Of a stretch of DNA of 17,084 nt, positions 6,142-11,375 are shown one piece after another. Below the pieces are notes generated by a model, which saw nothing but the letters and a program-made list of their open reading frames with translations, was not told the DNA's origin and did no database searches. Origin of the DNA: Candidatus Velthaea sp. (GTDB lineage Bacteria; Vulcanimicrobiota; Vulcanimicrobiia; Vulcanimicrobiales; Vulcanimicrobiaceae); the NCBI GenBank assembly GCA_050012475.1, contig JBEKHC010000102.1, forward strand, positions 1 to 17,084. Direction: 5' to 3'. Position 1 is the first letter of the stretch, and each line of letters starts with the position of its first letter. A program made the position numbers and the translations under genes.

Positions 6142-6228
6142 CGCGGCTTGCGGCGCAGCCGCAAACGCCACGCGGCTTGCGGCGCAGCCGCAAACGCCAC
6201 GCGGCTTGCGGCGCAGCCGCAAACGCCA
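6142..6228. repeat. Three perfect tandem 29-bp REP-like hairpin repeats (CGCGGCTTGCGGCGCAGCCGCAAACGCCA)
   Basis: Identical units at 6142-6170, 6171-6199 and 6200-6228, each containing TTGCGGC-GCA-GCCGCAA. They fill the gap between the convergent tolC and pgl stop codons. Confidence 0.97.
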
Positions 6229-6233
6229 CGGGT

Positions 6234-6983
6234 TCAGCGAAGCTGAACCCTGCTGCCCGCGAGCTGCGCCGCAGCCGCAGCGTCGACGAGCCAGGCGAGG
6301 TCGCCGGTTATGGGGGCGATGAGCTGGGCGGGAAAGCGGTCGGGTTCGTGTGGTCCCTCGAGAACGGCGGCGAGGGCTTGGGCTTTTTCGGCCCCGGCCG
6401 CCGTGATGGTGACGTGCCGGGCCGCGTTGAGCACGCGCGGCGTGAGGGTCACGCGGTAGCTGTTGAATTTCGGGACGAAGTTGGCGACCGCGAGGGCGCG
6501 ACCGTCGATCGAGGCGATCGTACCGGGGAAGAGCGAAGCGGTGTGTCCGTCCGGACCCATGCCGAGGTACACCAGATCGAAAACCGGCGCGTCGCCGAGC
6601 GTGTTCTTTAGCGTGGCGTCGTATGCTGCGGCGGCCGCGTGCGGTTCGACTTCGCCGCGTACGCGCTCGATCTGCGCGTCGGCGATGCCGAGCGGGGCGA
6701 AAAGCGTCTCACGCGTCATGCGATAGTTCGAGTCCGGATGATCCGGCGGCACGCAGCGTTCGTCGCCGAAGTAGAAGCGCAGTTTCGTCCAGTCCAGGCG
6801 CTCACGTCGCGGGCTGGCGGCGAGCCGGGCGTTCATGGCGCGCGGGGTCGAACCGCCGGCCAACGCCACGGCCGCCGAGCCGCGCGCCGCGATCGCGGCT
6901 CCGGCTAGGTCGATGAAGCGATCCGCGGCAGAGTCGGCAAGGGCATCCGCGTCGCGCAGAACGGTCAGAGATCGATCGGCCAT
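6234..6983 (-). CDS. pgl: 6-phosphogluconolactonase
   Basis: Motifs LAGGSTP, FGDERCVPPDHPDSNY, LGMGPDGHTASLFP and RVTLT. Confidence 0.97.
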   Translation of the reverse strand: MADRSLTVLRDADALADSAADRFIDLAGAAIAARGSAAVALAGGSTPRAMNARLAASPRRERLDWTKLRFYFGDERCVPPDHPDSNYRMTRETLFAPLGIADAQIERVRGEVEPHAAAAAYDATLKNTLGDAPVFDLVYLGMGPDGHTASLFPGTIASIDGRALAVANFVPKFNSYRVTLTPRVLNAARHVTITAAGAEKAQALAAVLEGPHEPDRFPAQLIAPITGDLAWLVDAAAAAQLAGSRVQLR

Positions 6984-7116
6984 AGCAGCCGCTTTCCCAG
7001 CATCGCCGGTCGTTTACCGCCTGCCGCCGGATTCGTTTGCGCTGGCTGCAACCGAGCCCCGGCGAGCGATGATTCGGTGCGGCGAATCGTGAAGGCGGCG
7101 CGTCCCGCGCCGGTCG

Positions 7117-7941
7117 TTATTTTATTTGGTGAACGTCCTCAGCGTTGAGCCGCAACCCACCGTTCTCGACGTCCAGAAGCCAGCGACCTTCGTCCACCGA
7201 CTGGGTGACGGTGCCGTTGTTTTCGCGATAGCGCGTGGTGATCCGAACGTTGACTGCATTTGCCGTATCGCCCGGCGTCGCCTCAACAGCGATGTGTTGC
7301 ACGAAGTCGTAGTATTTCACGTAGTCGGCAAAGGGGTTCTTGCGTTGCATTCTTTCCGACAGCATCCCGTACATCATTTGGAAATCGCGCTCGTTCGATA
7401 ACCGGTAATAGGTCTTGACGAAGTCGACGGCCGGAGTGAAAGCACTGGCCGATTCGGCTTGCAAGTCCGAACTAACCGCCGCGAACGAACCGGGAAGCGC
7501 CGTGGCGCTCCGGGACGTGTGCGAATAGGTCAGGATGACGATCGCCGCGATCGCGGTGACCACGAGTGGACGGATGGTCGACCGCGAGAGCGAACGCAAG
7601 AAGGCGCCCGGGCCATACTGATACCCGCACTTGGTGCAACGCTTGATCGGAGCCAGCAAACACAACAATCCAAGCGGAAAGAAGCACGAACAGATCAAGA
7701 TATGCGCCGGCGAGTATTTTATGGTAGAGTTGGCCTCGCCGCACTGCGGACAAACCGCGCCGCCGGCCGCGACATTGTGTGCCGGCTGGCGCGGTGCAGT
7801 CTGCGTCTGGGTCTGCTCGGACGGTGCGGCGGCTGGGGCGAGCGTTACGGTTGAGACCGTATTTGCGGTCGGCGTGAGTGTGCCGCAATACGCGCAAACG
7901 GCTCCGGAAAGTCCCGCGCCGCAGGCGCCGCAAGATGACAA
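7117..7941 (-). CDS. Membrane protein: zinc ribbon, BRI3/LITAF-like domain, TM helix, C-terminal NTF2-like domain
   Basis: CGACGAGLSGAVCAYCG; CPQC...YSPAHILICSCFFPLGLLCLLAPIKRCTKCG; TM PLVVTAIAAIVILTY; FVKTYYRLSNERDFQMMYGMLS helical start followed by beta strands. TTG start after GAGG. Confidence 0.75.
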   Translation of the reverse strand: MSSCGACGAGLSGAVCAYCGTLTPTANTVSTVTLAPAAAPSEQTQTQTAPRQPAHNVAAGGAVCPQCGEANSTIKYSPAHILICSCFFPLGLLCLLAPIKRCTKCGYQYGPGAFLRSLSRSTIRPLVVTAIAAIVILTYSHTSRSATALPGSFAAVSSDLQAESASAFTPAVDFVKTYYRLSNERDFQMMYGMLSERMQRKNPFADYVKYYDFVQHIAVEATPGDTANAVNVRITTRYRENNGTVTQSVDEGRWLLDVENGGLRLNAEDVHQIK

Positions 7942-8178
7942 GACAAGCCTCGTAAAAAGAAGATTCGCGAACCCTTATAAGGTTCGGCCTGCCGTTTCGA
8001 AACATTTAGCAGGCGGACGCCGAGCGGTACTCGGGTCGTGGGCACAGCACGCCGTCCGTAGCGGCGATGCTAAAAACGCTTTCGTTGCCAGCCGATACTA
8101 GTTCCGTAGCAGCAACCGGCATTCACATTGGCAATGGGGCCGCTGGTCGCTACGTCTGCGTCCGTAGATGGAGTTCGC

Positions 8179-8733
8179 GTGTCGCCCACATCCGTGAGTT
8201 GTGCATCGTGTGCCGCGCCGCTTAGCGTTGGTTCGGTAAAGTGCGACTACTGCGGCGTGCAGATCGGAGGCGTCGCGCTGCCGCGCACCGACGAGCCGGG
8301 TTGGGCATCGCCGTTTGCACAAACGCCTGGCACTTCGGGCGCATCAGTCGACGCGGTCTATACGCCCGCGCAGCGCGGACCGGTCGACCTGGCAAAGTTT
8401 TGGCCGGCCGTTAACCGCTGCTTTTATAAGTACTCGATCTTCACCGGCCGCGCTTCGTTAGCCGAATACTGGTGGTGGACCGTTTTCACGTTCGTGGCCA
8501 CCATCGTGCTGGGCGGCATGAGCCATTCGAGAAATCCGCTTCCCGGGATCTTTCAAGTCGCAGCGTTCGTTCCGACGATGGCGGTGACACTGCGTCGATT
8601 GCACGACGTTCGCGAGAGCGGTATGAGCTATTTGTGGATCCTTACCATCGTGGGCGGATTCTACGTGCTCTATTTACTATGCAAACCTTCAGACCGCGGG
8701 CCGAATATGTATGGCGCTCCGGACCCGATCTAG
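8179..8733 (+). CDS. DUF805 (YhaH/YhaI-like) inner membrane protein with N-terminal zinc ribbon
   Basis: DUF805 motifs KYSIFTGRASLAEYWWW, AVTLRRLHD and GPNMYG. N-terminal CASCAAPL...CDYCG. GTG 8179 follows GGAG (ORF track start is 8128). Confidence 0.88.
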   Translation: MSPTSVSCASCAAPLSVGSVKCDYCGVQIGGVALPRTDEPGWASPFAQTPGTSGASVDAVYTPAQRGPVDLAKFWPAVNRCFYKYSIFTGRASLAEYWWWTVFTFVATIVLGGMSHSRNPLPGIFQVAAFVPTMAVTLRRLHDVRESGMSYLWILTIVGGFYVLYLLCKPSDRGPNMYGAPDPI

Positions 8734-8815
8734 ATGAATTCGTCTCGGCTTCGCTCGACGACTGCCAAGGCGGCCCGTCTGGTAGGCGCCGGCCGTCCGC
8801 AGAGGAGAATCATTC

Positions 8816-9865
8816 GTGGCCATCATTGACGTCGTGAAATGGGATGGTTCCCCCCACGTTCTCGCTTGGAAGTATCCTTCGGAAGCGCTGTCGACGTGGA
8901 CCCAACTCATCGTAAACGAAACACAAGAAGCGTATCTGGTCAAAGGTGGCGTCTACGTGGGACCGATCGAGGCCGGCCGGCACACGCTCTCGACGGAAAA
9001 TATCCCGGGACTGTCCGGATTGATCGGACTGCCGTTCGGAGGGCGTTCGCCCTTTACGTCGGAGGTTTGGTTCGTCAACCGCGTGGCCAATCTTGACGTC
9101 CGCTGGGGAACGCCCGATCCGATCCAGCTCGCGGACCCGCAGTACAAGTTGATGCTGCCGGTCCGGGCATACGGGCAATACGGCGTTCGGATCATTGATT
9201 CGCGCAAGTTCTTGATCCGGCTGGTTGGAACGCTGCCACAGTTCGAGGCGTCGACGTTGGCCGAATATTTCCGGGGCGTGTTCATAACTCGAATCAAAAC
9301 CGAGATTGCTAACGCGATCATCATCAACGGTCAGTCGGTGCTCGATATATCGACGGAACTCGGCAAGCTATCCGAGATGCTGCGGGTCTCGCTTTCCGAA
9401 GATATGGCGACGTATGGTCTGAGTCTCTTGCAGTTCAACATCAACTCGATCAATGTCCCGGACTCCGATCCGGCAGTTCAAACGTTGAAAGCGGCGCTTG
9501 CCAAACGCGCGGAGATGACGATCGTCGGATTCAATTACCAACAAGAGCGCAGCTTCGACGTGATGCAGCAAGCTGCCGCCAACGAAGGAACCGCCGGCGC
9601 CGTGATGGGGACGGGTCTCGGAGCGGGTATGGGCGTCGCGATGGGAATGCCCATCGGCCAAAGTTTCATGCAGGCGGGAAGTCAGGTGAAGGTCGAGGCG
9701 GCAAAAACGCCTCCGGAGGAGCCGGCGGTATCGTCAAGTGCCGACCGGATAAAATCTCTGCGCGAACTTGCCCAACTGCGAACCGATGGCATACTCACCG
9801 AGGCGGAGTTCGAGGCCGAGAAGCAGCGAATTCTCAATCCAGCAGGAAAAGGCAGCGGTTCATAA
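8816..9865 (+). CDS. SPFH/band-7 domain protein (YdjI-like) with C-terminal SHOCT domain
   Basis: LAWKYP...QLIVNETQEA...GRHTLSTENIP...GGRSPFTSEVWFVN...RWGTPDPI...VRAYGQY. C-terminal LRELAQLRTDGILTEAEFEAEKQRIL. SD AGGAG. Confidence 0.92.
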   Translation: MAIIDVVKWDGSPHVLAWKYPSEALSTWTQLIVNETQEAYLVKGGVYVGPIEAGRHTLSTENIPGLSGLIGLPFGGRSPFTSEVWFVNRVANLDVRWGTPDPIQLADPQYKLMLPVRAYGQYGVRIIDSRKFLIRLVGTLPQFEASTLAEYFRGVFITRIKTEIANAIIINGQSVLDISTELGKLSEMLRVSLSEDMATYGLSLLQFNINSINVPDSDPAVQTLKAALAKRAEMTIVGFNYQQERSFDVMQQAAANEGTAGAVMGTGLGAGMGVAMGMPIGQSFMQAGSQVKVEAAKTPPEEPAVSSSADRIKSLRELAQLRTDGILTEAEFEAEKQRILNPAGKGSGS

Positions 9866-10327
9866 ATGAACGAGGTTCGATCGACCGGCGCCCCGGTTCG
9901 ATACGCTCGGTTTGCCGGCGTCATCGCCGGCCTGGCGACGGTCGTGATCGGCGCAATAAACGGGATCTCGCTGTTGGCCGGCAGGCCGTCAACGGTGTCA
10001 TTGTGGCTATTCGCCATCTCGGTCGGACTACTGCTCTGCGCAGCGACCTTTTTTGGCCGGTCGATTGCGAGCGATGCTCCCGCATTCGCGCTCATCGGGC
10101 CGGCTTCGTGCTTGAGCGCGCTGTTGTGTCTGATCTCGGGATATGCGCTCTACCTGGCCGTCAACCACGCGAATCCAACAGCGGTCTGGTCGTTCGACGT
10201 CGTCTTCGCTGCCGTGTTCTTTATCGGGTTGGGCATCCTCAAAGCGGCACAGTCGATCGTGGGAAATGCGTCGCTTTCGGATCGCTTCGCGTCGCCGGCG
10301 ACGCAGGCCAAATCGGATGAATGGTAG
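9866..10327 (+). CDS. Hypothetical four-TM membrane protein
   Basis: ATG directly follows the SPFH stop (TAAATG). Four hydrophobic segments. Confidence 0.72.
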   Translation: MNEVRSTGAPVRYARFAGVIAGLATVVIGAINGISLLAGRPSTVSLWLFAISVGLLLCAATFFGRSIASDAPAFALIGPASCLSALLCLISGYALYLAVNHANPTAVWSFDVVFAAVFFIGLGILKAAQSIVGNASLSDRFASPATQAKSDEW

Positions 10328-10340
10328 CGCCGAACGCCAT

Positions 10341-10371
10341 GGATTCGCGGCGCGTTCAGCGCCGCGAATTC
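10341..10371. terminator. GC-rich hairpin between convergent genes, possibly a bidirectional terminator
   Basis: Perfect 11-bp stem ATTCGCGGCGC (10343-10353) / GCGCCGCGAAT (10359-10369) with a 5-nt loop. No clear U-tract. Confidence 0.6.
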
Positions 10372-10373
10372 TG

Positions 10374-11375
10374 TCAGGCCGTGAGCGTGCCGACCATTCG
10401 CAGCGCCGACTCGAAAAGATCGTCCGTGCGCGGTTCCAGGATTGCGCGTTCGAGCAGTGAGGGACTGTCCACGGCTTGCAGCGGGACGAAGCGTCCGGGC
10501 GTCTCGTTTTTTCCGGTGGCCTTGACGAACACGACATTTTCGTCCTGATCGGAGACCCTTGCGCTATAGCGCGTGCTCTCCGTCGAGACTTCGATTGCCC
10601 AAATGCGGCGGATGCGGCCGGCGCGCTCGGATGAGAACGGGATATGGGCGCCGGCGGCGTCGCTGAACTCCAAGTGCGCGGTCGCGGTCCAGCCGAGCGC
10701 ACTCGCGAGCCAGCCACTCAAGTACAGTGCTTCCGCCTCGGATCCGGAAACGATTCGCAGCGAGCGGACGGAATAAAGTTCTTCCCTCAAGGTGGGATCG
10801 TCGAAGAAACGAGCGATCATGTCCTGCCACGGACGCAAACGCATCCACGCCAGATCGCGCAAGCGAATATTCTGACGGCGCGATAAAAAGTGCGTCAATT
10901 CGATCACGGTCGCGCCGTCGTTGCGCGTCCCGGACGAATCGACCACCAGCGAGTCGGCCAGTTCGACGAGCGCGTCAAACGCCGGTTGGCCCGTGATCCC
11001 CTCGCCCGTCCACCACAGCAAGGTCGGCAAGCCGTTCATGGTCAGCGAACCGGTCAGCTCGCGAATCTCGTCAGCCGACATCCCCGTCACGCCGATTTCG
11101 ACGCGCTCGCCATGAACGGTAATGTTGGCATCGTCTGCGGCGCCCGGCTCGCTGCGCACGAGCTTCGCGCCGGGCGGGGTGTCGGGACAGGCGTCGAGCA
11201 AGATCGCCCGGGCCGGATGCTTCTCCAAAATCTTCGTCGTTCGCTCGAGGACCCAAGCTCGAAAGTTGATGTCGTCGATCCAAACGATGAAGTTCATCGT
11301 CGTCGCGGAGACACTCGTCTTGCCGAGTTGCTCGCGCAGCAGGTCGAAGTCCGTCGAGGCAATCGGAGCGGTCAT
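10374..11375 (-). CDS. opcA: Glucose-6-phosphate dehydrogenase assembly protein OpcA
   Basis: TMNFIVW, HPARAILL, LPTLLWW, LVVDS, DLAWMRLRPWQDMIARFFD, LSGWLASALGW. ATG 11375 overlaps the zwf stop (ATGA). Confidence 0.93.
   Translation of the reverse strand: MTAPIASTDFDLLREQLGKTSVSATTMNFIVWIDDINFRAWVLERTTKILEKHPARAILLDACPDTPPGAKLVRSEPGAADDANITVHGERVEIGVTGMSADEIRELTGSLTMNGLPTLLWWTGEGITGQPAFDALVELADSLVVDSSGTRNDGATVIELTHFLSRRQNIRLRDLAWMRLRPWQDMIARFFDDPTLREELYSVRSLRIVSGSEAEALYLSGWLASALGWTATAHLEFSDAAGAHIPFSSERAGRIRRIWAIEVSTESTRYSARVSDQDENVVFVKATGKNETPGRFVPLQAVDSPSLLERAILEPRTDDLFESALRMVGTLTA

Follow-up and report, generated by a model that had tools for sequence, protein, structure and literature searches.

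A BRI3-family zinc-ribbon domain in a bacterial membrane protein with a putative anchoring role

The window analyzed here, a stretch of 17,084 nucleotides from Candidatus Velthaea sp., contains a gene, ORF 7117-7941, whose product and neighbors are laid out in Table 1. The start codon is TTG, assigned because homologues begin just ahead of the first CxxC. An initial annotation of the DNA drew attention to one segment of the translation, CPQC followed by 8 residues, a Cys-rich hydrophobic segment with FFPLG, 2 residues, and KRCTKCG, and that layout was found as described, with 34 residues between the two knuckles. The segment was further claimed to be combined with a second zinc ribbon, a linker, a transmembrane (TM) helix, and an NTF2-like domain, and here too the annotation was borne out by the DZR match, the structural model, and the structural comparison given below. 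After the second knuckle come 169 residues, including the TM segment and the NTF2-like domain.

Table 1. Features of ORF 7117-7941 and of the surrounding insertion
Feature	Position	Strand	Basis
Gene for 274-aa membrane protein (zinc ribbon, linker, BRI3 domain, TM helix, NTF2-like domain)	7117..7941	-	ORF, Pfam, model
N-terminal zinc ribbon, aa 3-25, two CxxC	7867..7935	-	Pfam DZR E=1.6e-4, below cut-off
Flexible low-complexity linker, Ala/Pro/Thr/Gln-rich, aa 26-60	7762..7866	-	Sequence; low pLDDT
BRI3 (PF10164) core, aa 64-106: CxxC knuckle, strand, helix-FPLG-helix hydrophobic hairpin (aa 78-97), strand, CxxC knuckle	7624..7752	-	Pfam, profiles, model
Turn with YGxG, then an amphipathic basic helix and one TM segment (aa 109-143, hydrophobic core at ~123-140)	7513..7617	-	Model helix 111-143
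NTF2-like domain, aa 166-274, probably extracytoplasmic	7117..7446	-	Structural match
Divergent gene, zinc ribbon + DUF805 membrane protein	8128..8733	+	Pfam DUF805 E=1.8e-18; sole DUF805 copy in genome
SPFH (Band_7_1) + SHOCT gene, inside insertion, not a conserved neighbor	8816..9865	+	Pfam; locus searches
Small hydrophobic membrane-protein gene, no family, last in insertion	9866..10327	+	ORF, Pfam
Four-gene insertion between pgl and opcA, 3.4 kb, ending at REP-like repeat (10326-10376)	6985..10375	.	Congener comparison, GC3

The protein is rare as a whole. A homologue search at full length returned only the product itself and one near-identical variant, and a search with the full protein in 40 relatives gave a single match, limited to the NTF2-like part. 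The PDB held no sequence match at E<0.5, NCBIfam no model near its cut-off, and PHROGs no match. The C-terminal domain aligned with the ectodomain 7sjy (RsgI9 S1C-NTF2) with a VIA-align Z score of 12.7 and an rmsd of 2.6 over 104 residues, a value that ties with other NTF2-like folds; over the 50 chains listed, Z ranged from 10.3 to 12.7 for model residues ~162 to 274. Foldseek gave nothing for this region at E<=0.001. The TM segment is only moderately hydrophobic; its hydropathy of 1.75 is the lowest found when it is compared with the 35 homologues (out of 43 parsed) that have a downstream TM segment. A promoter scan of 6950-8300 returned 0 sites, and RNA (two runs of one study, taken as a small share) yielded a single 236-nt contig piece, which falls on the NTF2-like part; the BRI3 part had none. 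We note that a 221-residue ENA protein (P0002) is 97% identical to the C-terminal part of the product and has its N terminus in another frame across the BRI3 domain; either the assembly is in error or the record comes from a related strain in which the frame has shifted.

The gene belongs to a group of four that forms an insertion, as the matches of pgl and opcA lie only 29 to 140 bp apart in 3 of 3 congeners. Moreover, GC3 is 0.69 to 0.75 in the inserted genes and 0.79 to 0.85 in pgl, opcA, zwf, and tal, and BLAST finds the right-flank repeat 33 times in the genome. Downstream of pgl (6142-6230) there are also three REP-like units of 29 nt in tandem. The repeat at the right end of the insertion is of a second class, distinct from these units, and 7095-7112 resembles 10347-10364 in 16 of 18 positions.

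That the core is related to animal BRI3 was supported in several ways. Pfam BRI3 matched the whole protein at E=5.5e-7 and 30.5 bits, above the gathering cut-off of 25.9, and the core alone scored 25.7 and 25.3 bits, slightly under it. The match was the only one in its own genome, and none was found in 14 control genomes. An animal-type HMM was built from 119 BRI3 cores (116 of the 120 best rows plus three found earlier; many named, some not), the eukaryotic seeds of which had first been retrieved with bacterial queries. When run against 73,031 six-frame segments of the genome, this HMM placed ORF 7117-7941 at rank 1 with 20.8 bits, the next segment reaching 9.9. It gave the isolated core 25.4 bits, a score that was reached by 0 of 2000 spacer shuffles and by 1 of 2000 sequences in which only the hydrophobic 18-mer was shuffled, and it also retrieved all 68 genome, all 80 metagenome, and all 9 viral loci described below. 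In the opposite direction, a profile from 31 mostly unnamed bacterial-type homologues retrieved named BRI3 proteins of Mytilus and Dufourea, and the core of ORF 7117-7941 used as a query retrieved a chytrid protein. Finally, profile-profile comparison of the bacterial type with BRI3 (hhalign) gave 97.8% and a pairwise E of 8e-13 over 50 almost gap-free columns, with the hydrophobic hairpin, of consensus FFPLGL, in register. The BRI3 likeness claimed in the initial annotation is thus well founded. The profile comparison that it had suggested gave a divided answer, as zf-LITAF-like (PF10601) matched the core at E=2.8 with 8.6 bits against a cut-off of 23.8, which is not significant, and the LITAF family was absent from the top 25 families when the 81 aligned members were compared with HMMs.

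Might a generic bacterial zinc ribbon and a generic FPxG helical hairpin simply mimic BRI3? The core is short (42 residues) and scores near the Pfam cut-off, the first retrieval of the animal profile's eukaryotic seeds with bacterial queries favors shared words, a similar FFPxGL hairpin without knuckles occurs at three loci, and atlas neighbors include Pmp3-bearing clusters, all with scores of <0.9. Convergence, however, sits poorly with a gap-poor profile match over 50 columns, with the shuffle controls, and with knuckle spacers of 34 residues in ORF 7117-7941, 35 in animals (119 of 119 animal-type cores), and 36 in the stand-alone bacterial proteins. Moreover, each of the 81 aligned members matches Pfam BRI3 at E<=0.1. 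We consider convergence very improbable and are highly confident that residues 64 to 106 form a genuine BRI3-family domain homologous to animal BRI3.

How the domain folds was approached by modeling. An AlphaFold model of the full protein (28 sequences; pLDDT 80, pTM 0.43) has a strand at 72-75, helices at 78-86 and 90-96, a strand at 99-102, a long helix at 111-143, and an alpha/beta domain at 169-273, and a model of the domain alone (81 sequences; pLDDT 83) again gave strand-helix-helix-strand. The modeled hairpin helices are 9 and 7 residues long, each much shorter than a bilayer span, with a kink at FPLG. The domain model had 20 structural matches, weak (Z 2.0 to 3.3) and mostly to zinc ribbons spanning both knuckles, among them NrdR (Z 3.3) and TFIIS (Z 3.2). 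Both knuckles are thus predicted to sit in one zinc ribbon, and the LITAF-type layout proposed at first, with paired knuckles around a short helical hairpin, agrees with the model. A fold search with the BRI3 domain placed an iridovirus LITAF-domain model at rank 12 (E=0.27), and neither sequence nor fold revealed a solved relative of the domain. Conservation points the same way; the second knuckle retains its Cys pair in 35 of the 43 homologues parsed, and of the remaining 8, 7 carry His at or beside the fourth position, an exchange that fits a metal site. Arginines 116, 120, and 124 precede the TM helix, and such basic residues suggest that the N-terminal part is cytoplasmic and the NTF2-like domain outside.

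Alternatively, the hydrophobic segment might be an ordinary TM helix that leaves the knuckles on opposite sides of the membrane with no common metal, and its peak 19-residue hydropathy, 2.46, does exceed that of the downstream TM segment. An invariant Pro-x-Gly in mid-segment, the two short helices of both models, and the joint conservation of the knuckles, His exchanges included, all speak against a simple membrane span, and the equivalent debate over LITAF was resolved in favor of the monotopic form (PMC5095921). We regard an ordinary TM helix as extremely unlikely. By analogy with LITAF, residues 64 to 106 very likely adopt a monotopic, zinc-clamped hairpin topology, and the model and the Cys-to-His exchanges are consistent with a single zinc and with both knuckles in the cytoplasm.

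BRI3 domains are widespread in bacteria. A search of 1.84 billion representatives gave 46 matches, 44 of them on the BRI3 domain, including the query protein and one chytrid; the other two (P0022 and P0037) matched solely at linker-side residues and were discarded. A fourth Pfam BRI3 match in the phylum (G208, L007) was likewise discarded, as it had two internal stops and lacked the motif. Of 43 parsed homologues, 35 run on into a TM helix and 17 start with a zinc ribbon similar to that of ORF 7117-7941. A fixed BRI3-YGxG-TM core is joined to N termini that vary (ribbon, SHOCT, or GYF_2) and to C termini that also vary (none, NTF2-like, or TonB_C). One homologue (P0025) is a 565-residue membrane protein with two BRI3 repeats at its end. 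A pattern scan of 185,579 genomes found 68 BRI3 loci in 14 named phyla, a lower bound because the scan pattern is exact, and 3 of these were extended forms; the other 65 were stand-alone proteins, the majority 53 to 57 residues long. RefSeq automatically names bacterial stand-alone members "DUF2367 domain-containing protein," and atlas labels suggest that DUF2367 is an older name of PF10164. The description "eukaryote-like" therefore overstated the rarity.

The stand-alone form has a regular neighbor. Of the 65 genome loci, 56 (from 10 named phyla) have a DUF2752 gene on the same strand within ~270 nt, as judged with a model built from neighbors in those same loci, a few of which are near-duplicates. 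Out of 197 metagenome loci, the best 80 were examined for DUF2752, and 77 carried it; none of these loci had served to build the model. An N-terminal segment common to the DUF2752 proteins linked to BRI3 is missing from four unlinked paralogues. A DUF2752 gene paired with a 55-residue BRI3 gene at L047:4529-5150 exemplifies the two-gene module (module set L024-L088). Complex prediction for a stand-alone BRI3, its neighboring DUF2752, and zinc scored 0.00, with the fold of the partner uncertain, and so counts neither for nor against a complex. No DUF2752 was found in the four phylum genomes with extended forms, whether that of Candidatus Velthaea (94% complete) or G144, G183, and G260. At three loci (L056:192-518, L057:5157-5483, and L064:5216-5482), a 109-residue protein with the same FFPxGL hairpin, no CxxC knuckles, and no Pfam match is encoded between the BRI3 mini-gene and DUF2752, and at three others (L055, L083, and L088) the mini-gene is duplicated in tandem or nearby.

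Nine viral contigs also carry the domain, all as stand-alone copies without DUF2752. At 8 of the 9, the copy lies amid tail genes (labels were tested at some loci and extended to the rest by BLAST cluster). At L012-L019, the copies are inserted in runs of phage tail genes, close to the tape measure gene and, in five loci, on the strand opposite to it; they look like morons. A position amid phage tail genes is typical of morons.

The origin of the domain was considered with a quick, unrooted IQ-TREE of 148 cores over 52 columns, after 11 of 159 candidate rows had been removed as duplicates or as too short; its eukaryotes were animals, one chytrid, and one unnamed record. The 24 eukaryote-type rows formed one branch (SH-aLRT 96) and the stand-alone bacterial family a separate clade (SH-aLRT 100), while the extended forms, including the product of ORF 7117-7941, made up an unresolved grade. 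A comparison of bacterial with eukaryotic sequences had been proposed at the outset, and because the protein falls outside the eukaryotic branch, the tree does not support its recent transfer from the sampled eukaryotes. Being unrooted, of 52 columns, and narrow in its eukaryotes, the tree gives no direction of transfer. We speculate, as a possibility that we hold rather loosely, that a zinc-clamped wedge of the BRI3/LITAF type is an old prokaryotic module, rather than one that arose in eukaryotes, and an interchangeable membrane anchor. In at least 10 named phyla it would stand alone and be paired with DUF2752; beside DUF805 it would be fused to outer domains and to ribbon, SHOCT, or GYF tags; and phages would carry it as a moron. 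The 55-residue form would be its minimal unit and DUF2752 its partner, and it may have been ancestral to eukaryotic BRI3 and perhaps to LITAF/CDIP1.

Within the phylum Vulcanimicrobiota, to which a relative from the same family labeled Baltobacteraceae also belongs, 4 of 401 genomes contained the extended form, and the gene that recurs beside it encodes DUF805. DUF805 adjoins the extended BRI3 gene in 4 of 5 genomes (that of Candidatus Velthaea [G000], G144, G260, and a Gemmatimonadota MAG, but not G183), a sample in which four genomes come from one family, and in G000 and G144 the copy beside BRI3 is the only one in the genome. Orientation differs among genomes, the two genes being divergent, codirectional, or convergent. 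DUF805 is not rare, as it scored above cut-off in 31 of 151 phylum genomes, a tally that includes the unpublished genome G036. In G144, three consecutive codirectional genes with ribbon tags encode DUF805, a BRI3-TM protein, and a ribbon-TM-NTF2-like protein. The NTF2-like domain of the latter is 39% identical to the C-terminal domain of the product of ORF 7117-7941, which thus resembles a fusion of two neighbors, and the fused BRI3-TM-NTF2-like form also occurs in three other homologues. Four nearby membrane-protein genes of G144 (NTF2-like, BRI3, DUF805, and trypsin-like; L090:8387-13095) start with similar zinc ribbons, which suggests a common cytoplasmic tag.

The initial annotation instead saw a sensor or adaptor working with an adjacent SPFH protein. 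The SPFH gene is not adjacent; it is on the opposite strand, two genes off, divergent from BRI3 and past the DUF805 gene. Might the protein nonetheless serve an SPFH-based membrane stress complex, as B. subtilis YdjG may do beside its band-7 protein? BRI3 and SPFH genes share one insertion, YdjG combines two zinc ribbons with an NTF2-like domain and a TM segment within a pspA/band-7 operon (PMC11237479), and Band_7_1 with SHOCT is the commonest SHOCT architecture (PMC3581485), SHOCT also being found at the start of some extended BRI3 proteins. A single-sequence query, however, found no SPFH match beside BRI3 in any of the other loci, whether from genomes (68), metagenomes (80), or viruses (9). 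Moreover, the SPFH subtype occurs in 88 of 401 phylum genomes (a tally that includes the unpublished genomes G036, G247, and G347) and not in G144, G183, or G260, none of which carries Band_7_1 on its BRI3-bearing contig; the Band_7_1 matches of G260 are on other contigs. The domain order, too, is unlike that of YdjG. We conclude that a partnership with SPFH is unlikely and that DUF805 is the recurrent neighbor. Within the host family, the SPFH subtype was seen in 6 of 296 other genomes, all weak matches, and it is common in other families of the phylum, a distribution consistent with acquisition.

Could the insertion be a module for defense or exclusion, in which the BRI3 wedge changes the membrane and blocks phage entry or DNA injection? 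It is sporadic and recent, as judged from its rarity in the phylum and from a site that is empty in 3 congeners, and stand-alone copies in viral loci mostly lie amid tail genes, with labels assigned in part by BLAST cluster. PADLOC 2.0 (2023 library), however, matched 0 of 8 proteins at E<=0.01, and no effector domain was found. Moreover, with the BRI3 cluster itself (and its ribbon-bearing DUF805 genes) set aside, DUF2752 is the only neighbor cluster to exceed 5 of 78 loci. We consider a defensive role improbable, marginally more so than a role with SPFH.

How the protein acts can be proposed by analogy. We think it probable, on balance, that the protein carries its BRI3 zinc-ribbon hairpin as part of a nonenzymatic membrane anchor or adaptor encoded in a horizontally acquired cassette. 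A hydrophobic helical hairpin would be inserted in a zinc ribbon between the two CxxC knuckles and, as in LITAF, one Zn ion would clamp it while it enters the cytoplasmic membrane from the inside, reaching into the inner leaflet but not spanning the bilayer. The first ribbon, the linker, and the BRI3 domain would be cytoplasmic, the next helix would span the membrane, and the NTF2-like domain would face outward, where it may bind an envelope ligand. The most likely role is a nonenzymatic one, in which the protein would be the anchor or adaptor in a small cassette for envelope sensing or membrane scaffolding that was presumably gained by horizontal transfer. The wedge and ribbons might dock on a partner multipass membrane protein, which in this insertion is probably the DUF805 protein with its ribbon tag, and the stand-alone bacterial form would pair with DUF2752 instead. 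That the adaptor acts together with DUF805 is a tentative proposal, for which we would put the chances slightly under even. We conclude that the product of ORF 7117-7941 is a real variant of a known family without earlier description, the function of which we infer.

The BRI3 family and the automatic DUF2367 naming of its bacterial members were known already. Among the papers listed in a largely open-access literature, none described bacterial BRI3/DUF2367 members, none dealt with DUF2752 or DUF2367 by name, and none reported LITAF in Asgard, phage, or archaea; nor did the search turn up an experiment on zinc binding or topology for any member of the BRI3 family. The surprise is lessened because DUF2367 is annotated automatically, because dispanins provide a precedent, and because the fusion is rare and lies in a lineage-specific insertion. 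A 55-residue bacterial BRI3 with a fixed genomic partner, together with the extended forms, nevertheless makes it possible to test directly in bacteria whether such domains bind zinc, insert monotopically, bend membranes, and bind partners. Bacterial BRI3 proteins could serve as simple models for a poorly understood human protein family, and their distribution raises the question of where this membrane anchor originated.

How the protein compares with known systems depends on the part considered. With eukaryotic BRI3 it has in common GxCPxC, an aromatic residue followed by S/T, the FFPLGL hydrophobic hairpin, a basic residue before CxxCG, and a low-complexity segment ahead. Animal and chytrid BRI3 proteins have a Pro/Tyr/Gln-rich N-terminal tail and stop shortly after the second knuckle, whereas the product of ORF 7117-7941 has an extra zinc ribbon at its N terminus as well as a TM helix and an NTF2-like domain, such that its BRI3 domain is not C terminal. 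Human BRI3 is a poorly characterized membrane protein of 125 residues (PMC6451842). The bacterial DUF2367 protein (53 to 57 residues; e.g., WP_082985932.1 of Bizionia) is the same domain, with ~40% identity to the core, but unlike our protein it stands alone, forms its own clade, and is paired with DUF2752.

LITAF/CDIP1 (PF10601) likewise has two Cys pairs flanking a hydrophobic helix. Its zinc-clamped, monotopic membrane insertion was predicted (PMC5142333, PMC5095921), and a 1:1 zinc content and two cytoplasmic termini were measured experimentally (PMC5095921). LITAF is also reported to tubulate liposomes. LITAF domains are described throughout eukaryotes, and prokaryotic homologues go unmentioned in the cited portions of these papers (PMC5142333, PMC5095921). 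LITAF proteins also have N-terminal PSAP/PPxY motifs (PMC5095921), which are absent from the translation of ORF 7117-7941, and the HMM match is not significant and the hairpin domain not C terminal. Thus, the domain would work like LITAF, by analogy, but on the tests run it is not a LITAF member. B. subtilis YdjG, compared here by description only, is encoded in the pspA-ydjGHI operon near a band-7 gene and shares zinc ribbons, an NTF2-like fold, as well as a TM segment, but its parts are in another order and no BRI3 hairpin is described (PMC11237479). Finally, the dispanin/CD225 (IFITM) family, although unrelated to BRI3 in sequence and without zinc knuckles, is another small membrane module known from animals that is also found in several bacterial phyla and for which a bacterial origin has been proposed (PMC3282796).
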